DNA from: a virus
Lineage: Duplodnaviria > Heunggongvirae > Uroviricota > Caudoviricetes
Reading direction: 5' to 3' (one strand)
DNA: 36,774 nucleotides
IMG/VR virus record: IMGVR_UViG_2639762884_000004
Part shown: piece after piece, positions 1,140-26,630 of the stretch
Numbering within the stretch: position 1 is the stretch's first letter
Layout: every line of letters begins with the position of its first letter
The notes under the pieces: model-generated
What the model was told of the DNA's origin: nothing
The model's database searches: none
The model's input: the letters and a program-made list of their open reading frames with translations, nothing else
Position numbers and translations under genes: made by a program

Positions 1140-2657
1140 TTAATCAAATGATGTGGCCAGTTCAATTAATTCAATGTAATTATGTAAGGCATAAAAAGAT
1201 GTATTCAGACCATTCTCTATAAGGGCTCCTTGCAAATACTTTATAGCTGTATCACCATCAATAGGGCCTTGTTGAGATATAATCATTAGTGAATTTTGCC
1301 CATTGTTTTTTATACTTGATTTAAGCATGTTTATATTATTAATAAAATACAATGCAACATCTAAGTAATTTATTAATGTTAAATTTATTTTGGGCTCGAT
1401 CTGTGAGATGAATAATCTACTGCTCGCCGTTCTATAGATATAATTGACACCTATTCTTTGCTGATTTGTATCAAGATTTAATTCAAGGATGGCTTGAGAA
1501 ACACCTTTTAAATTGGAGCTTTGCTTTATCGAATCAGTGAAACGTTGTGCTGCATTTCTTCGACCAATTAGTCCATCTATAATTTGACGATCCTTATCAT
1601 ATATAATCATTAGCGAAATTATAAAAATATAATCTACTTTCTTTTTGACTAAATCAGATTTAAGAATGTCTATTAACCTTTCAGTATTTCGGATTGAGTC
1701 TCTTAGATTTAACCCAAATGCTTCAAATACGTTGGAAATATTTATTGAAAAGTCTTCTAATGTTGCTGTTAGTGGGTATGTTTTTGATGTGATATTTTCA
1801 AAATCGGTACCAATATAATCACCAACAACACCATTAATTAAATCTTTAAGTTCAGGTTGTTTTAAAGTAAATCTTCTATGAAAAAAACGGCCTAAATAGT
1901 CATTTGCGGAAAAATCATTACCGTAAACATTCTTGATTGAATGTTGTAATTGATCTGTGTTAGTAGCAATAATAAAGACAAAATTTTTAATATCGAATAT
2001 ATGTTTAACAATCTCTAAAAGAGAAATTGCATAATCTGGCCTGCATCTGTCTAATTCATCTATAAAGATAAATATAGGACATGAAAAACTATTTTCATAT
2101 GCCAACCTAGACCATAACGTTAGTTCTTTTTTTAATACCTTAATGCTCTTCAGTTTTTCCTGGTGTTCCTTCAGCATTATTAATGAGGCTTCTTTGGCTA
2201 TATCACCTACATTATCTACTCCTGCATAAGTCTTGATTAGGCCAGATATGATTTCAGGTAGAACACCTTTTGTAAAGCGTCCGATAGCATGGCCGCTTTG
2301 TATCAATCGAGCATCAAGTTTTCCTGCATATGTTTGCAATTGTTGTGACAAAGAAGAAAAAAGGGTTAAAAATGCATCATCAGAAAAGTCTTGCTTCCAG
2401 GCATCAATGTAAACGCATGGGTGTGCATCTTTTATTGAGTTATAAAATCTCTTTATGAAAAAACTTTTACCAGCTCCCCATTCTGCATTAAGGTTGATTA
2501 CCGTGTTGTTCTTTTGCCCCTTTTCCTTAAGATAAAAATATAGATATTCTGCATAGTGTCTCCGATTAAGTTTGTCTTTGGAAAGAATTTCCTCTTCGTC
2601 GTCTAATATAAAGGTAGTTTCTTCATCCCAGTTCCAATTACAATCACCACATTTCAC
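1140..2657 (-). CDS. KAP-family P-loop NTPase (AT-rich cargo gene)
   Basis: 505 aa; Walker A AEWGAGKSFF and Walker B/KAP signature IFIFIDELDRCRP; GTG start with GGAG 7 nt upstream; only 25 nt after the CI-paralog stop; markedly AT-rich relative to the phage core; no obvious transmembrane insert. Confidence 0.7.
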   Translation of the reverse strand: MKCGDCNWNWDEETTFILDDEEEILSKDKLNRRHYAEYLYFYLKEKGQKNNTVINLNAEWGAGKSFFIKRFYNSIKDAHPCVYIDAWKQDFSDDAFLTLFSSLSQQLQTYAGKLDARLIQSGHAIGRFTKGVLPEIISGLIKTYAGVDNVGDIAKEASLIMLKEHQEKLKSIKVLKKELTLWSRLAYENSFSCPIFIFIDELDRCRPDYAISLLEIVKHIFDIKNFVFIIATNTDQLQHSIKNVYGNDFSANDYLGRFFHRRFTLKQPELKDLINGVVGDYIGTDFENITSKTYPLTATLEDFSINISNVFEAFGLNLRDSIRNTERLIDILKSDLVKKKVDYIFIISLMIIYDKDRQIIDGLIGRRNAAQRFTDSIKQSSNLKGVSQAILELNLDTNQQRIGVNYIYRTASSRLFISQIEPKINLTLINYLDVALYFINNINMLKSSIKNNGQNSLMIISQQGPIDGDTAIKYLQGALIENGLNTSFYALHNYIELIELATSFD

Positions 2658-2682
2658 TATGAAGTCTCCATGAAAAATTTAC

Positions 2683-3606
2683 TTAATGTAAACAACTTAT
2701 AATAACTTTTGCAATAAACTCAATGTCTGTAAGCGAACATTCAAAAGAGTGATTTTGGGATGAAATATAAACTCGTCCTTTAGGTAGTCGAGTTATCATT
2801 CTAAATGAATTCTCTCCATCAATATTTACTAGCCACTTACCATCATGTACATCTTTAAAACCCATTTCACATATTAATTCAGAGTCTTCGGTAGATACTA
2901 CGAATGCATTTTTTAAATTGGAAGGTAGAAAGCATGGGTCAAATAAATATGAGCCATCATTTATTAACTTGCCATTGATTAATACTTTTTTCACTAATGT
3001 TAAAGTATCTTTATTTTTTGCGTTTTTCATTTCTCCTGTACCAAATGAAATCCATTCAATAGAATGGCCCGTTTCTATTGCACACTGCAAAACCCAGTCT
3101 GCAGGAAAAATGTCACGCATGTATCGTGTGGCTAATGTGCTTTTTGAAATACCTAGGTGATCAGCTAATGCTTGGTGCGTTTTGTAACCGTAAGCCTCGA
3201 CAATTCGTTCTATTGTTGCCTTACCCCCTCGGTTAAAATTCATGAGTTTTTCATTATCGAACTTTATAGTGGGAATGTATACTTCATTGCAAAGGCCATT
3301 AACGGCATGTTTTTCAGAATATTGCTCTGATGAAGGAGCAGTATCTGAACCAAGAACTAACCATTCAATTGATGCTCCTGTTTCTATGGAACATATAACA
3401 ACCCAATCTGCAGGAAAGGTATTACGTGCATATCTGTTGGCCATAGTACTTTGGGAAATACCTAGATGATTACATAATGCCTGTCGTGACTTGAAGCCAT
3501 AGGCTAGGAGTATACGCTCAATAACTTTTTGCCCTCCACGATTCTGCATAACTATTGCTTTCAGATCGTTTTTGATATGGCTAAATTTTAATTTTTGAGT
3601 TGACAT
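2683..3606 (-). CDS. CI-repressor paralog with two tandem CI-type N-terminal HTH domains and a CI-like C-terminal domain
   Basis: 307 aa. Residues about 20-90 and 125-190 each resemble the cI N-terminal domain; domain 2 shares the helix segment ISKSTLATRYMRD with cI exactly. C-terminal part aligns with the cI C-terminal domain (FLPSNLKNAFVV versus FLPSTLKNPFVI; DGKWLVNIDGE...ITRLPKGRV versus DGKWVISIDAE...ITRLPGGRI). Confidence 0.75.
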   Translation of the reverse strand: MSTQKLKFSHIKNDLKAIVMQNRGGQKVIERILLAYGFKSRQALCNHLGISQSTMANRYARNTFPADWVVICSIETGASIEWLVLGSDTAPSSEQYSEKHAVNGLCNEVYIPTIKFDNEKLMNFNRGGKATIERIVEAYGYKTHQALADHLGISKSTLATRYMRDIFPADWVLQCAIETGHSIEWISFGTGEMKNAKNKDTLTLVKKVLINGKLINDGSYLFDPCFLPSNLKNAFVVSTEDSELICEMGFKDVHDGKWLVNIDGENSFRMITRLPKGRVYISSQNHSFECSLTDIEFIAKVIISCLH

Positions 3607-3656: not shown

Positions 3657-4226
3657 TTACTCAAAGTACTTAACTGTTATGCTTATAATTTTTCCAATAA
3701 TTTCGATTTCTTCTTTTTTACATTCGAAAGCCCTATTTCCACCTTCAACTAAGATTCTTCCACCAGGTAAACGAGTGATATCGCGGATTGTTACTTCGGC
3801 ATCAATACTTATTACCCATTTGCCGTCACGAATATCGTTAAACTCTTTATCGCAAATAAAAACGGAATTGTTATCGGTGATTACAAACGGATTTTTGAGC
3901 GTAGATGGTAGAAATTCTTTATCGAAAATATAAAAACCATCTTCCTGCAAGGTTCCATCAGATAATACATATTTAACGACTTCCATAGTATTTGTATTAC
4001 CTGAAGTTTGCTTTGAACCATGTCCGGTCGTGAGCCAGTTAAGCGAGGCGCCCGTTTCAAGTGCGCACTGGATTACCCATTCAGCAGGGAATGAGTCACG
4101 CATATAGCGTGTGGCGAGAGTACTTTTAGAGATTCCTAAGTGATCGCACAACGCCTGTCGAGTCTTGAAGCCATATGCTTCTACCATGCGCTCTATAGCG
4201 CCTCGTCCGCCTTTCTCCAAATTCAT
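3657..4226 (-). CDS. cI: Immunity repressor CI (186-type, HTH N-terminal domain plus oligomerisation C-terminal domain)
   Basis: About 190 aa; divergent from apl across a short switch region; ATG at 4226 has GGAG 6 nt upstream, and an in-frame GTG at 4232 is an alternative start. Confidence 0.8.
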   Translation of the reverse strand: MNLEKGGRGAIERMVEAYGFKTRQALCDHLGISKSTLATRYMRDSFPAEWVIQCALETGASLNWLTTGHGSKQTSGNTNTMEVVKYVLSDGTLQEDGFYIFDKEFLPSTLKNPFVITDNNSVFICDKEFNDIRDGKWVISIDAEVTIRDITRLPGGRILVEGGNRAFECKKEEIEIIGKIISITVKYFE

Positions 4227-4250
4227 GGTCACTCCAAGTGAACTTTTGTC

Positions 4251-6156: not shown

Positions 6157-7010
6157 GCACCATCCTGAAATGGGCGGGTAATAAAACCGCCATTATGCCA
6201 GAACTGAAAAAATACCTTCCTGCTGGCCCGCGACTGGTTGAACCTTTCGCGGGTTCTTGTGCTGTGATGATAGAGACGGATTACCCCAGCTATCTTGTTG
6301 CGGATATTAATCCTGATTTAATCAACCTCTATAAAAAGGTTGCTGCTGATTGCGAGGCGTTTATATCTCGTGCCAGAGCTTTATTTGAGGAAGCAAACAG
6401 GGAGGTGGCTTATTACAACATAAGGCAGGAGTTTAATTACTCCACTGAAATTACTGATTTCATGAAAGCGGTATATTTCCTGTATCTCAATCGTCATGGT
6501 TACCGTGGGTTATGTCGCTATAACAAGAGCGGGCATTTCAACATTCCCTACGGGAATTATAAAAATCCGTATTTCCCTGAAAAAGAAATTCGCAAATTTG
6601 CAGAAAAAGCCCAGCGAGCAACGTTTATCTGCGCCAGCTTTGATGAAACGCTGGCGATGTTGAAGGCGGGGGATGTGGTGTATTGCGATCCGCCTTATGA
6701 CGGTACGTTTTCCGGCTATCACACTGATGGCTTCACTGAGGATGACCAGTATCACCTGGCATCCGTTCTTGAACATCGATCATCTGAAGGTCATCCGGTC
6801 ATTGTTTCTAACAGTGACACATCCCTGATTCGTTCGCTGTATCGCAATTTCACTCACCACTACATCAAGGCAAAACGCAGCATCGGCGTGTCGGCTGGCG
6901 AGAGTAAATCTGCAACAGAAATCATTGCTGTTTCCGGGGCGCGCTGCTGGGTGGGATTTGATCCTTCGCGTGGCGTGGATAGTTCTGCTGTGTACGAGGT
7001 GCGTGTATGA
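6153..7010 (+). CDS. dam: Orphan DNA adenine methyltransferase (Dam-like)
   Basis: 285 aa from ATG 6153; LKWAGNK near the N-terminus, catalytic DPPY (VYCDPPYDG), and [16 protein letters not shown] region, all as in Dam; no adjacent restriction endonuclease. Confidence 0.85.
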
Positions 7011-9421
7011 GTCATGATGATATGAGCAACTCTAGCGGCTTTAACGAGGCCGCTGCAGCATTTTCATGGAACGGCCCGAAAAAGGCCATTAACCCTTATC
7101 TGGACCAGGCGGAAGTTGCGCCGGAGTCTGCACTTTCAAACATGATCACTTTGTACGCTGCCGATAACGAGCAGGAACAGCTGCGCCGCGATGCACTGAG
7201 TGAGCAGGTCTGGGAGCGTTATTTCTTTAATGAATCCCGTGATCCTGTCCAGCGCGAAATGGAGCAGGATAATCTCATTAGTCGGGCAAAGCTGGCGCAT
7301 GAGCAGCAGCGTTTTAACCCGGACATGGTCATTCTGGCGGACGTCAGCGCCCAGCCCACCCACATCAGCAAGCCGCTGATGCAACGTATCGAATACTTCA
7401 GCAGCCTGGGCAGGCCAAAGGCTTATTCCCGCTATTTGCGTGAGACGATTAAGTCATGTCTGGAGCGACTGGAGTATGTACGCGACAGTCAGCTATCCGC
7501 TTCTTTCCGTTTTATGGCAAGCCATCAAGGGCTTGAGGGCCTGCTGATCCTGCCTGAAATGAGTCAGGATCAGGTAAAACGCCTGTCCACCTTGGTAGCA
7601 GCGCATATGAGCATGTGTCTTGAGGCCGCTTGTGGTGATTTGTATGCCTCCGATGACGTTAAGCCAGAAGAAATCCGCAAGACATGGGAAAAGGTGGCAG
7701 CGGAAACCCTGCGTCTGGATGTTATCCCGCCTGCGTTTGAGAAACTCCGTCGGAAAAGAAACCGCCGCAAACCCGTGCCCTATGAACTCATACCGGGTTC
7801 GCTGGCACGTATGCTTTGCGCCGACTGGTGGTATCGAAAATTGTGGAAGATACGTTGCGAATGGCGGGAAGAGCAGTTGCGTGCTGTCTGCCTGGTCAGC
7901 AAAAAAGCATCTCCCTATGTCAGCTATGAAGCAGTGACGCATAAACGTGAGCAGCGCCGCAAGTCGCTGGAGTTTTTCCGTTCTCATGAACTGGTGAACG
8001 AAGACGGCGACACGCTGGATATGGAAGACGTGGTAAACGCCAGCAGCAGCAACCCGGCGCACCGCCGCAATGAGATGATGGCCTGTGTTAAAGGTCTGGA
8101 GCTTATCGCGGAAATGCGTGGTGACTGCGCCGTTTTCTACACCATTACCTGTCCGTCACGTTTCCATTCTACGCTCAATAACGGCAGACCAAACCCAACC
8201 TGGACAAATGCGACGGTAAGACAAAGCAGCGATTATCTGGTCGGCATGTTTGCTGCATTTCGTAAGGCTATGCACAAAGCCGGGTTGCGCTGGTATGGCG
8301 TGCGGGTGGCTGAGCCGCACCATGACGGTACTGTGCACTGGCATCTCATGTGTTTCATGCGCAAAAAAGACCGCCGCGCCATTACTGCATTGTTGCGTAA
8401 GTTTGCCATCCGTGAAGACCGCGAGGAACTGGGCAATAACACTGGTCCACGCTTTAAGTCTGAGCTGATAAACCCGCGCAAAGGAACGCCGACAAGCTAC
8501 ATCGCGAAATACATCAGTAAGAACATTGACGGACGTGGTCTGGCTGGCGAGATCAGCAAGGAAACGGGTAAATCCCTGCGTGATAACGCCGAATACGTTA
8601 ATGCCTGGGCGTCTCTGCATCGTGTTCAGCAGTTCCGCTTCTTTGGTATTCCGGGGCGTCAGGCGTACCGTGAACTTCGCTTGCTGGCTGGTCAGGCGGC
8701 AAGGCAACAGGGTGACAAAAAAGCAGGTGCGCCGGTACTGGATGACCCGCGCCTTGATGCCATCCTGGCTGCCGCTGATGCTGGCTGTTTTGCCACCTAC
8801 ATCATGAAGCAGGGCGGCGTACTGGTTCCCCGCAAATATCACCTTATCAGAACAGCTTATGAAATTAACGAAGAGCCGACCGCTTATGGCGATCACGGTA
8901 TTCGTATTTATGGCATCTGGTCACCCATTGTACAGGGCAAGATCTGCACTCATGCAATGAAATGGAAAATGGTTCGTAAGGTCGTTGACGTTCAGGAGGC
9001 GGCAGCCGACCAGGGCGCTTGCGCCCCTTGGACTCGTGGCAATAACTGTCCCCTTGCTGAAAATTTGAACCAACAAGGGAAAGACAAATCAGCTGATGGG
9101 GACTCCAGAACGGATATTACCCGTATGAATGACAAGGAGTTGCACGATTACCTGCACAGTATGAGCAAAAAAGAGCGCCGGGAACTGGCTGCAAGGTTAC
9201 GCCAGGTGAAACCGAAACGGCGTAAAGACTACAAACAGCGAATTACAGACCATCAGCGACAGCAGCTCGTCTATGAACTGAAGTCCAGGGGATTTGATGG
9301 CAGCGAGAAAGAAGTCGATTTGCTCCTTCGCGGCGGCAGTATTCCGTCAGGAGCAGGCCTGCGTATCTTCTATCGGAACCAGCGTCTGAAGGAAGATGAT
9401 AAGTGGCGGAACCTATATTAA
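7007..9421 (+). CDS. A: Rolling-circle replication initiator (P2 gpA-like)
   Basis: 804 aa; HUH motif in [10 protein letters not shown] and tyrosine motif YIAKYISK; position matches P2 A / 186 repA. Confidence 0.85.
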
Positions 9422-9515
9422 TTACGCGGGTTAACAATTCGTGCTCTTAATAATACCAGGCATATCAGGCCGATGAACGTAAAAAAACGTTTTACATCAG
9501 TAAGATTATTATATA

Positions 9516-9531
9516 CTGTAAATATAAACAG
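9516..9531 (+). promoter_or_regulatory. LexA (SOS) box CTGT-N8-ACAG overlapping the -10 of a promoter for the downstream small operon
   Basis: TACTGTAAATATAAACAGTG; TTTACA -35 candidate at 9491-9496 with 17-bp spacing to TACTGT. Confidence 0.7.
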
Positions 9532-9573
9532 TGGTTATGTGTACAGTATTGTTTTGGTGTCATAGGAGGAAAG

Positions 9574-9762
9574 ATGCAGGACTATTTTTTGGAGTCTTTG
9601 AAGCTCCAGCGCATTGATTTTTTTCTTAAGCTTGTAGCGGCTAGTGAGTGTAGTGATGAAGAGAAGGGGCTGGCTCTGCAGTGGGTTTCTGAATTGACTG
9701 ATGAACTCATGGCAAAAATCAGAAGCCACGAATACAACCGCTCAATGGATGTCATCAGCTGA
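9574..9762 (+). CDS. SOS-regulated small protein, possible antirepressor (186 tum-like position)
   Basis: 62-aa ORF with strong AGGAGG ribosome-binding site directly downstream of the LexA box. The protein is much shorter than the size I recall for 186 Tum, so the functional assignment rests on position only. Confidence 0.4.
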   Translation: MQDYFLESLKLQRIDFFLKLVAASECSDEEKGLALQWVSELTDELMAKIRSHEYNRSMDVIS

Positions 9763-9772
9763 GGTGACTTTT

Positions 9773-10006
9773 ATGCGCATTGAAATAATGATCGATAAAG
9801 AGCAGAAGATTAGCCAGTCTACCCTGGACGCCCTTGAATCCGAGCTTTACCGCAATCTGCGCCCCCTGTATCCCAAAACGGTAATTCGCATTCGCAAAGG
9901 TAGCTCTAACGGTGTGGAACTAACCGGACTGCAACTGGATGAAGAAAGAAAACAAGTGATGAAAATTATGCAGAAGGTGTGGGAGGACGACAGCTGGCTG
10001 CATTAA
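9773..10006 (+). CDS. dinI: DinI-family protein
   Basis: 77 aa from ATG 9773 (GAGGTG upstream); MRIEIMIDKEQ...ALESELYRNL...VWEDDSWL resembles DinI; second gene of the LexA-boxed operon. Confidence 0.75.
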   Translation: MRIEIMIDKEQKISQSTLDALESELYRNLRPLYPKTVIRIRKGSSNGVELTGLQLDEERKQVMKIMQKVWEDDSWLH

Positions 10007-10014
10007 GAAATGTT

Positions 10015-10044
10015 GCCCCCAGGAGGATTCATTCTGATGGGGGC
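10015..10044 (+). terminator. Possible terminator hairpin after the dinI operon
   Basis: GCCCCCA / TGGGGGC 7-bp stem with a long 16-nt loop, followed by TAGTTTG; weak. Confidence 0.3.
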
Positions 10045-10198
10045 TAGTTTGGGCAATGAGTGAAATAAGGCGTAAGGTGGGCGGTTATTTTGATAAGTGA
10101 TCGTCCGCTTTGTGTCAGAAGCAGAAGTGGGAGTGTCTGAGACTCTCTAAAAGTTGATGATTCACTTACAAAACCATTTTCCTGATGGATGCTTACAC

Positions 10199-10534
10199 TT
10201 ACGAATGATCATTCTGTTTAGTCTTCATGAGAAAATCCCGAATCTTTGCCAAGTTTGAATTTTCGGGGATTGAATCCATGTACGGATCACGCTCAAACAC
10301 TAATTGCTCAGATTCAACGAAAGCCTGCCACTCTACTGGGTCTAGCTCAAATCCCATTGCTGTCATATCACTTTCATCTTCCCCCTCGATCCAGTGGACT
10401 AAATAAAACAATTCATCATCAGGAGAATCATCCTCACCATCAACAATATCAACATCGGTTACAGTGATACGTAGGGTGGGATCGATTTTTGAGACATAAA
10501 TTCCTAACTGTGGTATAGGGGGAATATTGTTCAT
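10199..10534 (-). CDS. Strongly acidic small protein of unknown function (AT-rich cargo gene)
   Basis: 111 aa, rich in D/E with few basic residues; AAGGAG 7 nt upstream of the ATG; opposite strand to its neighbours. Confidence 0.55.
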   Translation of the reverse strand: MNNIPPIPQLGIYVSKIDPTLRITVTDVDIVDGEDDSPDDELFYLVHWIEGEDESDMTAMGFELDPVEWQAFVESEQLVFERDPYMDSIPENSNLAKIRDFLMKTKQNDHS

Positions 10535-10913
10535 GGAAACTCCTTTTATTGGTGTTTGCTATTTGAATAAAAATACGCCAAACAGAGTGTTAACTGTGAA
10601 TATGGAAAGAATCGTTGTAAGTACCCCGCTTAGGTGTCCCATTCTATTTTAGAGGTTCTCGTGCATATGGATTATGTTATCTGAAAGTTAACTTCCGCTT
10701 CCCGTTCACAGCGAACATTCATCTTTGTAAACCCGTATGATCCGTTTTTCAAGTGGCCATTCAGATACGGATTTTTACTTCTTTGACAGTGCATGACTAT
10801 GCTGCATGAAATCGCATGATCGATTGAGGATCGTCTTTGCTCAGATCCGCCAGAACTGGCGGGCTTTTGCTCATGTCATGCATGTGCATGAAAACCACTG
10901 CATAAAGCGGGCA

Positions 10914-10932
10914 GGCGTGGCGGGGATACGAT
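10914..10932. other. Candidate cos (cohesive-end) motif inside a ~470-bp noncoding region
   Basis: GGCGTGGCGGGGATACGAT; the first 13 nt match my recollection of the 186/P2 19-nt cohesive end GGCG(T/A)GGCGGGGAAAGCA(T/C). Recollection only, not verified. Confidence 0.4.
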
Positions 10933-11001
10933 TGCGCGCAGAAGATTATTATTGGTACACTGTCGGTGACTCTCTACGCAGATCTTACACATTAATTTCT
11001 A

Positions 11002-11814
11002 ATGGGGCATGCTATGATCTTTCTAAGTCATAATCACCGTGACAAAAGGTTTGTAAGTGTTATAGCGGAAAAACTAGCAGATGTTTATGGGCGTGATAAC
11101 GTATTCTACGATTCTTGGTCTATCCAACCCGGAGAGGGTATTATTGACAAGATGAATTTAGGAATGGAGAATGTATCGTTCTTTTTCTTTTTTGTCACAG
11201 AAAATAGTTTGGCAAGTAACATGGTAAAAATGGAATGGCAAAATGCTTTAATTAAGGCATCGTCCGGGAAGTGTAAATTTATACCAATACGTTGCCAGAA
11301 TATATCCTTGCCTGCTCTGCTTACTCAAACGCTATATATTGATCTTTATTCGTATGGGATCGATGTGGCAATAAGACAAATTATAGATGTCATTAATCAA
11401 CAAAATACGTATATTCCTAATCCTGAGAAGTATTCAAACCTCTCCTATGATATTAAGGATGGTGATGGGGGTAAGATAGTGAAATTATCAGCAATGGATT
11501 TTTTAGAACCAATTGCTGATTTTATGATGATTATGGATAATACAATTAAGCATGATGATGTTGTTGTTATGGTCAATGGAGAAAGCACATTCACTCAGGG
11601 GTTTATTGAAAATGCATCTTTAGAAAATGGTATGAAAGTAAGTGGTGCCACTGTTGGCCTAAATCGGGGGTTAACACCAACGATGCCAATGTATGTTTCT
11701 CTTAGGTTAAAGGATGGTTCACCTTTGAATATATTTGCGGTGCTACATCGAGTAAGTACCGAGCGTTATGCTCCTATACCACATAAAGCCGATGATGCCT
11801 TTAGAGTAAAATAA
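11002..11814 (+). CDS. TIR-domain protein with an uncharacterised C-terminal domain (AT-rich cargo gene)
   Basis: 270 aa (alternative ATG at 11014). N-terminal IFLSHNHRDK followed by NVFYDSWSIQPGEGI and FFFFFVTENSLASNMVKMEW fits a bacterial TIR fold; C-terminal ~140 aa unrecognised. Confidence 0.6.
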   Translation: MGHAMIFLSHNHRDKRFVSVIAEKLADVYGRDNVFYDSWSIQPGEGIIDKMNLGMENVSFFFFFVTENSLASNMVKMEWQNALIKASSGKCKFIPIRCQNISLPALLTQTLYIDLYSYGIDVAIRQIIDVINQQNTYIPNPEKYSNLSYDIKDGDGGKIVKLSAMDFLEPIADFMMIMDNTIKHDDVVVMVNGESTFTQGFIENASLENGMKVSGATVGLNRGLTPTMPMYVSLRLKDGSPLNIFAVLHRVSTERYAPIPHKADDAFRVK

Positions 11815-11823
11815 AAAGCAATA

Positions 11824-11849
11824 TGGTGGCTATATAATTAAGGCCACCA
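11824..11849. terminator. Bidirectional terminator hairpin between the convergent TIR gene and portal gene
   Basis: TGGTGGC-N12-GCCACCA; U-rich tract on the minus strand (TATTGCTTTTTATT) and A/T-rich on the plus side. Confidence 0.45.
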
Positions 11850-11858
11850 ATTTATATC

Positions 11859-12887
11859 TCATAAACAATAGGATGAAAATGCAATAACTTTCTCACCCAG
11901 CCAATGGTTTAACTCCTCCATGCGTTTCTGTAATGGCAAAAGTTCATTGCGCACAAACACATTTGCGGCCTTCTCCACATCCCCAAACCCTCCAACATTA
12001 TTAGGCATAATCCCCATCATTTGCGGCGGCACGCGGTGCGCAGCCATCATGTCATCGCGGCTCACGTTCTTGATATTCAAAAACTCATCCTTCGCCGCCA
12101 CCTCTGACAACGGGATAATCTGAAGCCCGTCCTTTTTGCCGTTAGGCGAGTACATAAACAGGTTGCGGAAGTTACCCGGACCTTTGGCACTTTTCATTGC
12201 ATTGCGGAGGTTGTTCACGTCCTCCTGGTTCTGCGCAGCATCGGTCATGTACATGATGAAGCCTGCATGACTACCGTTAATGTAATACTTGCGGCGGAAC
12301 AGCGTGGCGGACTCATTGAGCAGGGCGGACGGAATGGCAGAAAGATAGCCGGGCAGGCCGTAGATCTCCTGGTTAATGTCCGGTTCCATCAGATGAAAAA
12401 TGCTGCCTTTCGTGAACTGATACGGCTGGGTTGTCATACCGTATTGCACAAACCAGTAGGTATCCAGGTCTAACCCGCGTCGGGTGTATTTTGCCAGAGC
12501 AGGCTCAAGGGCGATAACTTCACCGAAGCGGTTCGTGCGTTTCTCCAGGTAGGCGTTACCAAATACCAGATAGTCCTGCACAAAACGTGAAAAAGCCTGC
12601 TGGCTGAGCAGCGGGTGAGGGATGTAGGTACTGGTCAGAATGTTGCATTTCACCGCAATTGGTGAACTGTGATGCACGGCGGCGCGGAAGGTGCGCGCCA
12701 GTCCGTCAAAGCTTACTGGCGGCTCATACCAGCGATCTGTCTGTACGCATTCCACATAGTCCAGCAGTTCTCGGCGGTCCAGAACAGGAACGGGATCGCC
12801 GAAGCTGAATGCTTCGGCTGTAGTTTGACTTTTAAGCTGGATCTGTTTCGTCGCCGCAGCGCGGTTCTTCTTACTCTTTCCCATCAA
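11859..12887 (-). CDS. Q: Portal protein (P2 gpQ-like)
   Basis: 342 aa; size and position beside the terminase ATPase match P2 Q (about 344 aa). Confidence 0.85.
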   Translation of the reverse strand: MMGKSKKNRAAATKQIQLKSQTTAEAFSFGDPVPVLDRRELLDYVECVQTDRWYEPPVSFDGLARTFRAAVHHSSPIAVKCNILTSTYIPHPLLSQQAFSRFVQDYLVFGNAYLEKRTNRFGEVIALEPALAKYTRRGLDLDTYWFVQYGMTTQPYQFTKGSIFHLMEPDINQEIYGLPGYLSAIPSALLNESATLFRRKYYINGSHAGFIMYMTDAAQNQEDVNNLRNAMKSAKGPGNFRNLFMYSPNGKKDGLQIIPLSEVAAKDEFLNIKNVSRDDMMAAHRVPPQMMGIMPNNVGGFGDVEKAANVFVRNELLPLQKRMEELNHWLGEKVIAFSSYCL

Positions 12888-26057: not shown

Positions 26058-26630
26058 ATGATCATGCTTATTGGCTATGTACGCGTGTCAACAAATGACC
26101 AGAACACCGATTTGCAACGTAATGCACTGAACTGCGCGGGATGTGAGCGGATTTTTGAGGACAAAATCAGTGGCACTAAGTCCGACAGACCGGGGCTGAA
26201 AAAACTACTCAGGACACTATCGGCAGGAGACACGCTGGTTGTCTGGAAGCTGGACAGGTTGGGGCGCAGTATGCGGCATCTTGTTACGCTGATAGAAGAG
26301 TTGCGCCAGCGTGGTGTGAATTTCAGAAGCCTGACTGACAGTATTGATACCAGTACCCCAATGGGCCGTTTCTTTTTTCATGTCATGGGTGCCCTGGCTG
26401 AAATGGAACGCGAACTGATAGTTGAACGTACCAGGGCAGGGCTGGCTGCAGCTCGTGCCAAAGGCAGAGTAGGTGGACGCCGTCCTAAGTTGACCACCGA
26501 ACAGTGGGCACAGATTGGGCGTTTACTCGAGGCCGGAGAATCAAGACAGCGTATTGCACAGATTTTTGATGTAGGCGTTTCTACCATTTATAGAAAATTT
26601 CCGGCAAATAAGATCAATGAATCCCCCTGA
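26058..26630 (+). CDS. Serine DNA invertase (Hin/Gin/Pin/Cin family)
   Basis: 190 aa; N-terminal catalytic region LIGYVRVSTNDQNTDLQ and C-terminal HTH; sits in the P2 Z/fun position between G and FI. Confidence 0.9.
   Translation: MIMLIGYVRVSTNDQNTDLQRNALNCAGCERIFEDKISGTKSDRPGLKKLLRTLSAGDTLVVWKLDRLGRSMRHLVTLIEELRQRGVNFRSLTDSIDTSTPMGRFFFHVMGALAEMERELIVERTRAGLAAARAKGRVGGRRPKLTTEQWAQIGRLLEAGESRQRIAQIFDVGVSTIYRKFPANKINESP

Follow-up and report, generated by a model that had tools for sequence, protein, structure and literature searches.

The window analysed here, the whole 36,774-nucleotide stretch deposited as IMG/VR record IMGVR_UViG_2639762884_000004, is a complete P2/Fels-2-like prophage of Escherichia coli, and a gene on its minus strand at 10199-10534 encodes a strongly acidic protein of 111 amino acids (aa). 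The acidic open reading frame (ORF) is a real protein-coding gene under purifying selection. Its family is already catalogued, as DUF8087 and phrog_17127, and is functionally uncharacterised. The gene is a self-contained accessory gene, or 'moron', of integrated elements and is mobile as a cassette. Tentatively, and with less than even confidence, its product is read as a decoy or mimic that would be expressed in the lysogen and would most likely exclude competing phages or satellites.

The acidic gene and its family

The preliminary description of this DNA, made from the sequence alone, had pointed to a protein dominated by Asp and Glu, a strong ribosome-binding site, AT-rich DNA and a strand opposite to the neighbours, and on each of these points it holds. 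The ORF reads from an ATG on the minus strand over 111 residues, which include 15 Asp and 11 Glu against 4 Lys and 3 Arg (26 acidic versus 7 basic residues), and both acidic motifs quoted at the time, DVDIVDGEDDSPDDE and EGEDESD, are present. The two calculations then suggested give a net charge of -19 and an isoelectric point (pI) of ~3.95 by root finding, the 4.05 returned by Biopython being the floor of that routine. Asp and Glu make up 23.4% of the protein, the top share among window ORFs of at least 80 aa (runner-up, 17.6%). The gene has a GC content of 40.5% against 50.8% window-wide and is enclosed by a GC trough at ~10050-10800. A Shine-Dalgarno motif, AAGGAG, lies 5 nt before the ATG, and the flanking genes, for a DinI-like protein (9773-10006) and a TIR-domain protein (11002/11014-11814), are both on the plus strand. 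No signal peptide or membrane segment was seen in the protein sequence, neither a LexA box nor a P2 late-promoter dyad was seen by eye upstream of the gene, and an Rfam scan of 9400-11900 returned no non-coding RNA match.

The protein is a full-length member of DUF8087 (PF26332) and of phrog_17127 (E = 2e-70, residues 1-111 of 111), both of them families without functional information. Its RefSeq entry is WP_001059831, and newer records use the name 'DUF8087 domain-containing protein'. A single-sequence search returned 61 homologue clusters, all from Enterobacterales and all PF26332, a broader profile search returned 88 clusters, all pre-annotated PF26332, and a profile search of a 1.84-billion-protein library returned 35 representatives; a scan of the genome collection with the close alignment found 5 loci only. 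No mention of DUF8087, PF26332, phrog_17127 or the WP accessions was found in the searchable literature.

The ratio of nonsynonymous to synonymous substitution rates (dN/dS) is 0.12-0.22 against eight orthologues from other contexts and genera, a ninth being saturated at synonymous sites. Start codon and length are conserved, and the residues of the hydrophobic core do not vary. P8, G11 and W69 are invariant throughout the wide family and Y13, V25, V28, V46, D56, E63 and L78 nearly so, and at least 91% of family sequences have an acidic residue at positions D56, E63 and E68. Acidity is itself family-wide, with a net charge of -8 to -22 and a pI of at most 4.5 in relatives down to ~25-30% identity. 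An ORF arising by chance in AT-rich hotspot DNA, with no functional gene behind it, would sit comfortably with a gene that has neither a recognisable promoter nor a functional annotation, but the low dN/dS across genera, the conserved start, length and core, the confident fold prediction, the existing Pfam and PHROG families and the strong ribosome-binding site all speak for a gene. The conservation analysis effectively refutes the chance origin, which is left with a negligible probability.

AlphaFold2, given a 30-sequence alignment, predicts a compact five-strand barrel with helices (mean predicted local distance difference test, pLDDT, 79; predicted template modelling score, pTM, 0.65). In the model, strands span residues 11-15, 22-32, 42-50, 60-64 and 78-82 and helices residues 66-76 and 94-109, and loops hold the two stretches richest in acidic residues, 33-41 and 51-59. 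The first of these acidic loops varies in length from 0 to ~10 residues across the family. Distant members (25-45% identity, 68-132 aa) cover only residues ~5-82, the barrel core, and several carry a basic N-terminal extension, MGQAKLRGSKEDRIAQ; the C-terminal helix is confined to the Enterobacterales clade.

Scans against NCBIfam and a Pfam library copy without the PF26332 model gave no match, and the family profile had 0 matches among PDB sequences at E <= 10. No confident homology to an unrelated characterised family, which would have spoken against the earlier proposal, emerged from the Pfam, NCBIfam, PADLOC or PDB-sequence searches. A fold comparison of the predicted barrel found no solved structure like it, known DNA mimics and anti-defence proteins included, and no homology to the anti-restriction families Ocr, ArdA, Arn or KlcA(ArdB) was found in sequence or fold. 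As modelled, the DUF8087 fold is without a solved relative and is in that sense novel.

A hotspot divided by cos

The window sequence is 100% identical in E. coli SOI121, where the prophage is integrated between rcdA and ybjL. The local order is gpA (7007-9421, plus), a 62-aa protein, the DinI-like protein, the acidic gene (minus), the TIR gene (plus), the portal gene gpQ (minus) and the terminase gene gpP (minus), and the gpA-to-gpQ interval has been described as a hotspot (Rousset et al. 2022). The features of this interval are as follows.

7007-9421, plus strand: gpA replication endonuclease
9574-9762, plus strand: 62-aa protein (phrog_698) at the end of the early operon, convergent with the DUF8087 gene and outside the cassette
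9773-10006, plus strand: DinI-like protein, last gene of the early operon, convergent with the DUF8087 gene and outside the cassette
10015-10044, unstranded: GC-rich inverted repeat GCCCCCA...TGGGGGC in the gap where the DinI-like and DUF8087 genes converge, read from the sequence
10017-10787, unstranded: whole DUF8087 module, ~770 bp
10160-10212, minus strand: decayed 5' end of a P2-type integrase gene, aligning with the integrase 5' end
10199-10534, minus strand: DUF8087 coding sequence, ATG start, 111 aa, core domain ~5-82 with five strands and one helix in the model, and predicted C-terminal helix 94-109
10535-10787, minus strand: ~250 bp of DNA upstream of the acidic gene, always co-inherited with it in E. 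coli P2-like prophages
10540-10545, minus strand: Shine-Dalgarno AAGGAG, 5 nt before the ATG, read directly from the sequence
10788-10941, unstranded: cos region, a conserved block with a cohesive-end match to P2
11002/11014-11814, plus strand: lone TIR-domain protein of 266-270 aa, N-terminal TIR_2 (1e-22), 70-80 bp from cos

The window was aligned over this region with Fels-2, vB_EcoM-813R9, BL21(DE3), E. coli W and one retron-Ec67 strain. The module at 10017-10787 is missing in the related phage vB_EcoM-813R9, and Fels-2 has the unrelated STM2726 in its place. The inverted repeat at 10015-10044, which from its sequence may be a bidirectional terminator, forms the left edge of the module, and the promoter of the acidic gene presumably lies within 10535-10787. 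The block at ~10788-10941, in turn, is conserved in every aligned genome, also in phages without the acidic gene. It contains a hairpin followed by a T-run (10846-10863) and a 19-nt cohesive-end sequence, GGCGTGGCGGGGATACGAT, at 10914-10932; because this sequence aligns with the annotated P2 cohesive end, GGCGAGGCGGGGAAAGCAC, the block is identified as the cos site.

Since the conserved cos divides the interval, the hotspot comprises two slots. The DinI-to-cos slot holds the acidic gene, 380 bp from cos, as the last gene at the packaged right end and reading inward; the cos-to-portal slot holds the TIR gene. The P2 annotation places tin and old on the minus strand between A/orf91 and cosR under the label 'lysogenic conversion', with the old/tin mRNA starting ~150 nt from cosR. 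The acidic gene occupies the same position as this P2 TO region, between the gene A operon and cosR, reads leftward from near cos and has a foreign composition.

The two slots assort independently. Of 5,426 complete E. coli genomes, 214 (~4%) carry the acidic gene. In 131 of the 214 carriers the whole DinI-gene-cos block is present at ~99-100% identity, these 131 standing among ~1,310 genomes with a related prophage. At 100% identity the gene is found in at least 100 E. coli genomes, identical copies including those of BL21(DE3), E. coli B, E. coli W and enteropathogenic E. coli E2348/69. The cargo across cos from the identical gene is retron Ec86 in BL21(DE3), a DprA-like gene in E2348/69, GmrSD in E. 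coli W and, in other cases, retron Ec67 or an AAA ATPase with SIR2. The combination of acidic gene and TIR gene was found in a single genome among the 5,426, and 27 IMG/VR loci that share the DinI/acidic-gene/cos side have 19 different arrangements in the cos-to-portal slot. Because such varied cargo stands beside an identical gene, the acidic gene is not a component or specific regulator of the TIR gene or of the other cargo; a functional tie to the TIR gene was considered and rejected on the one co-occurrence, the intervening cos and the 19 arrangements. The earlier placement of the two genes in the 'same hotspot' is thus right insofar as both lie inside the gpA-gpQ interval, but they sit in separate, freely recombining slots split by cos. 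The DinI-to-cos slot, home of the acidic gene, is the slower-changing of the two.

Several observations concern the genes around the slot. The TIR protein, whose C-terminal half is unassigned, has only weak PADLOC matches (TIR-NLR, PDC-S66, ThsB-like) and is a candidate single-gene TIR defence; its gene accompanies other left-hand slots in several E. coli genomes. The Fels-2 annotation describes a DinI-like homologue similar to PsP3 TumB, and the 62-aa and DinI-like genes at 9574-10006 probably correspond to the SOS-linked module of 186-type phages that comprises an antirepressor and DinI. A variant of the cos-side slot in three IMG/VR loci (L058-L060, 6323-7610) holds DUF8087, an integrase 5' remnant, a 127-aa protein (phrog_26730, which adjoins DUF8087 in the ST131 island too) and a 139-aa ORF that resembles a GNAT acetyltransferase by eye; these extra genes indicate that the DinI-to-cos slot accumulates cargo too. 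NZ_CP026085.1, labelled E. coli DH5alpha, has a P2-like prophage with the gene at 100% identity, which is unexpected in a K-12 derivative, and the assembly may be mislabelled or contaminated.

A mobile cassette and its genomic homes

Beyond the P2-like prophages of E. coli, DUF8087 travels as a compact unit. A ~440-bp segment, made up of the gene with ~50 bp of flanking DNA at either end, has 92-96% identity across elements of Lonsdalea, Morganella, the E. coli ST131 island, Proteus, Serratia, Symbiopectobacterium and an unrelated tailed prophage, and a ~1.07-kb version of the cassette includes the ~70 first codons of a P2-type integrase. In the window a trace of this integrase persists as the scar at 10160-10212. 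Its ATG (10212-10210) falls within the last codons of the DUF8087 ORF, and it carries a 6-nt duplication and stops after 16 codons, reading MIIRKCKHPSGKWFCK*.

Four types of context were distinguished, the cos-proximal slot of E. coli being type A. Type B comprises P2-like prophages of Klebsiella aerogenes (L017-L021), Buttiauxella and five IMG/VR contigs, in which a CI-like repressor, an FlkN-like protein, DUF8087 and an integrase follow one another in a tight operon; in L017 and L018 the gaps are 9, 10 and -4 nt, and the DUF8087 stop overlaps the integrase start. Because the integrase 5' scar in the window follows the DUF8087 stop codon, the E. coli module is taken to descend from such a lysogeny operon and to have moved beside cos later, and on this sequence evidence the operon location is ancestral for the E. 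coli clade.

Type C gathers larger islands and related regions: a large ychF island in ST131-type E. coli, with a ~90%-identical variant in ~80 genomes; a CP4-like island of Morganella and Providencia, where DUF8087 lies downstream of a 1,169-aa helicase-PLD protein; Proteus, where it lies 930 bp upstream of PD-T7-1; regions of Lonsdalea and Symbiopectobacterium that resemble integrative and conjugative elements; and Xenorhabdus, where it adjoins a filamentous prophage. Type D (L010, L011-L013, L014) consists of ~10-kb islands of Nitrosospira and metagenomes with an integrase, DUF8087, an AlpA-like HTH_17 protein and Phage_GPA. The cargo of these islands includes Hachiman, a Gabija-like pair, a BglII-type restriction-modification system, a TIR-NLR-like protein (TIR, AAA_16 and TPR domains), SRA-HNH and SMEK_N, and the islands may represent satellites or integrative elements, loaded with defence genes, of a family not yet described.

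DUF8087 was found in no setting other than an integrated element, and defence cargo invariably accompanied it (TIR, retrons Ec86 and Ec67, AAA+SIR2, GmrSD, DprA, PD-T7-1, Hachiman, Gabija-like, TIR-NLR-like and SRA-HNH). A tblastn search at E <= 1e-3, at which remote relatives would be missed, detected it in 0 of 50,697 deposited phage genomes and 1 of 72,556 plasmids. No partner gene was found to be conserved across all contexts, and no toxin either, as a toxin-immunity or antitoxin role would suggest. A link to cos in the distant islands was rejected, the cos core motif being present only in the cos-proximal P2-like loci and P2.

The operon of type B raises the question of whether DUF8087 is half of a two-gene module with the FlkN-like membrane protein, acting in superinfection exclusion or abortive infection, of which E. 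coli would have kept one half, orphaned or degenerate. The FlkN-like protein (phrog_5825, 209-247 aa) is tail-anchored, combining an Ant/ORF6C-like core with a membrane anchor at its C terminus. Its gene directly precedes DUF8087 in all 11 lysogeny-operon loci (L017-L021, L031, L066-L070), and the two co-diverge, at 39-100% identity for the FlkN-like protein alongside 54-77% for DUF8087. The FlkN-like gene is restricted to type B, however, and is missing from the window, the E. coli cos-side slot, the ST131 island and the loci of Morganella, Proteus, Serratia, Lonsdalea and the distant islands, and a two-gene module of this kind is judged improbable. From purifying selection and 100% identity in at least 100 genomes we infer that the lone E. 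coli gene functions alone.

The recurrent company of integrases bears on another explanation, that the protein is a life-cycle or host-modulating factor of the element which acts on a non-immune DNA-binding protein. Candidate targets would be the tyrosine integrase, an excision factor, a repressor (as for CarS and P4 epsilon), H-NS or HU, or the GPA replication machinery. CarS of Myxococcus xanthus is an acidic antirepressor of SH3 topology that mimics operator DNA and sequesters its repressor. In P2-like prophages outside the genus Escherichia, int starts before the DUF8087 ORF has ended, the int 5' remnant travels with the cassette, and the distant-island copies adjoin int. A Phage_GPA initiator lies within ~0.4-1.3 kb in all three distant island types with enough flanking DNA, and P2-like phages use GPA too; acting on H-NS or HU, the protein would relieve silencing of AT-rich cargo. 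A general link to rolling-circle initiators was rejected, GPA being present in the distant islands and unconfirmed in Xenorhabdus, ST131 and L062-L064. Overall, a role in the element's own life cycle is considered unlikely.

Two further regions of the window were noted in passing. On the minus strand at 1140-3606, between the CI repressor (3657-4232) and the integrase (1-1053), are genes for a CI-like 307-aa protein (phrog_4 repressor) and a 505-aa KAP-family P-loop nucleoside triphosphatase with a weak QatA-like match. This looks like a third accessory or defence slot of the prophage, and the equivalent slot in the Klebsiella and Buttiauxella relatives holds the FlkN-like protein and DUF8087. 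At ~26064-26630, a 'recombinase family protein' next to tail-fibre and tail-fibre-assembly genes of opposite orientation points to a possible invertible segment for host range; the region was mapped from RefSeq NZ_AP035757 (3052944-3053510), whose annotation is its sole basis.

Candidate functions and comparison with known systems

A binding, mimic or decoy mode of action is suggested because the protein is stand-alone, non-enzymatic, folded (in the model), persistently acidic and selected in many unrelated integrated elements. A compact acidic barrel without a catalytic motif would most likely act stoichiometrically, blocking a basic nucleic-acid-binding partner as a charge mimic or decoy. 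A function in the lysogen is favoured for four reasons. Both P2-type sites are linked to lysogeny, one by the old/tin slot and orientation and the other by the CI-int operon; the integrase scar marks the operon site as ancestral for the E. coli clade; only integrated elements carry the gene, in every case amid defence cargo; and it is missing, by tblastn, from the virulent phages and plasmids in which anti-restriction mimics are common. The protein would then be produced in the lysogen and to the lysogen's benefit, and would most probably sequester a protein that binds DNA or RNA and belongs to a superinfecting phage or satellite. The outcome would be exclusion, as by P2 Tin, rather than the neutralising of host defences during infection. 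Expression in the lysogen, binding or decoy action, and the identity and origin of the target are all matters that we infer.

Several considerations weigh against this decoy reading. Small acidic proteins of mobile elements are classically anti-defence, a ~75-aa acidic domain without an effector would be unusual as a stand-alone defence, and the association with the slot is guilt by association. A search for sigma-70 promoters upstream of the gene gave weak matches only, none of them convincing. The PADLOC-DB 2.0 models matched the protein in 0 families at E <= 1, no expression or phenotype data on it were found in the searchable literature, and it is not listed in the text-form supplementary tables of the DefensePredictor paper or found in the searched portions of the P4-satellite hotspot tables. 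P2-type hotspots also hold non-defence genes such as partition systems and toxins, and in the published hotspot arrangements the acidic protein appears only as 'hypothetical' and was not assayed there (Rousset et al. 2022).

The preliminary description had proposed a possible DNA mimic or anti-defence factor, and the two halves of that proposal fare differently. A mimic or decoy fits a small cytoplasmic protein, extremely acidic family-wide, with no enzymatic domain and a compact barrel model; the anti-defence half is unsupported, the context leaning to lysogeny through the tin/old slot and the CI-int operon. In its full form, the anti-defence explanation holds that a DNA mimic blocks a DNA-targeting host defence, such as restriction, BREX or a nuclease/helicase system, and so aids establishment of the element. 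Ocr, ArdA, Arn and HI1450 are of an acidity comparable to that of DUF8087, whose acidity is kept family-wide in a small protein predicted to fold. Moreover, a ~440-bp cassette found in many kinds of element would suit a host-independent generalist tool, the gene is the outermost at the packaged right end, inward from cos, and some carrier islands also encode PF03230 Antirestrict, RadC and DUF2787. Yet the slot and orientation are those of P2 tin and old, which are lysogenic-conversion exclusion genes, and in the Klebsiella, Buttiauxella and IMG/VR P2-like prophages the gene lies inside a CI-int operon that would be expressed in lysogens. The tblastn counts for phages and plasmids, the usual homes of Ocr- and ArdA-type genes, likewise tell against it, as does the lack of likeness in sequence or fold to solved DNA mimics or anti-defence proteins. 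An anti-defence mimic is judged doubtful, yet a serious rival, and a lysogen-expressed decoy is preferred.

P2-like prophage hotspots are a main source of new anti-phage systems, and the DUF8087 gene, carried by ~4% of complete E. coli genomes, has been listed in them only as 'hypothetical'. A mimic or decoy function would give that class a new fold and would add to mobile-element conflicts a minimal single-domain player in an unusually small moving cassette. Going further, DUF8087 might found a structurally new class of nucleic-acid mimics or decoys, a ~75-residue acidic SH3-like barrel (in the model) spreading in its ~440-bp cassette among the prophages, satellite-like islands and genomic islands of Proteobacteria; this extension is speculative and rather doubtful. 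Were it true, the new class would give protein-only 'decoy immunity' against incoming phages or would broadly inhibit DNA-targeting defences. In that case the identical copy beside retron Ec86 in BL21(DE3) may already affect phage and defence experiments in E. coli B. Should the protein prove ordinary, the useful result would be the anatomy of the P2 hotspot, with two independently assorting slots split by cos and DUF8087 set apart from the TIR gene. No description of this anatomy, that is, the cos-split hotspot, the cassette and the integrase scar, was found in the searchable literature.

Among known systems, the P2 TO region is the closest in position. The acidic gene has its slot, leftward orientation and low GC in common with tin and old, and all are foreign, non-essential inserts in a recognised hotspot. 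The products differ: Old is an ATPase/nuclease and Tin a protein of 253 aa, whereas the acidic protein is a predicted 111-aa barrel, and BLASTP gave no alignment between it and P2 Tin at E <= 100.

The exclusion genes of the lambda rexAB/sieB type, which are transcribed together with the prophage repressor, offer a second parallel. A repressor operon is the classic site of lysogen-expressed genes that exclude other phages, and the DUF8087 genes of Klebsiella, Buttiauxella and IMG/VR P2-like prophages likewise stand in a repressor-integrase operon. There is no homology between these proteins and DUF8087, however, and the copy in the window has moved to the cos-proximal slot.

The DNA mimics (T7 Ocr, ArdA, T4 Arn, T7 gp5.9, AcrIIA4/AcrF2, HI1450/DMP) resemble DUF8087 in being small, very acidic, non-enzymatic and encoded by mobile elements. 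They are unrelated to it by sequence (Pfam, PDB profile) or fold, and they are found in the early regions of virulent phages or the leading regions of plasmids, whereas DUF8087 occupies lysogeny-linked slots of integrated elements. Seen against these systems, the acidic protein probably adds one more member to a known kind, the small acidic binding proteins that mobile elements encode, and does not amount to a category of its own.

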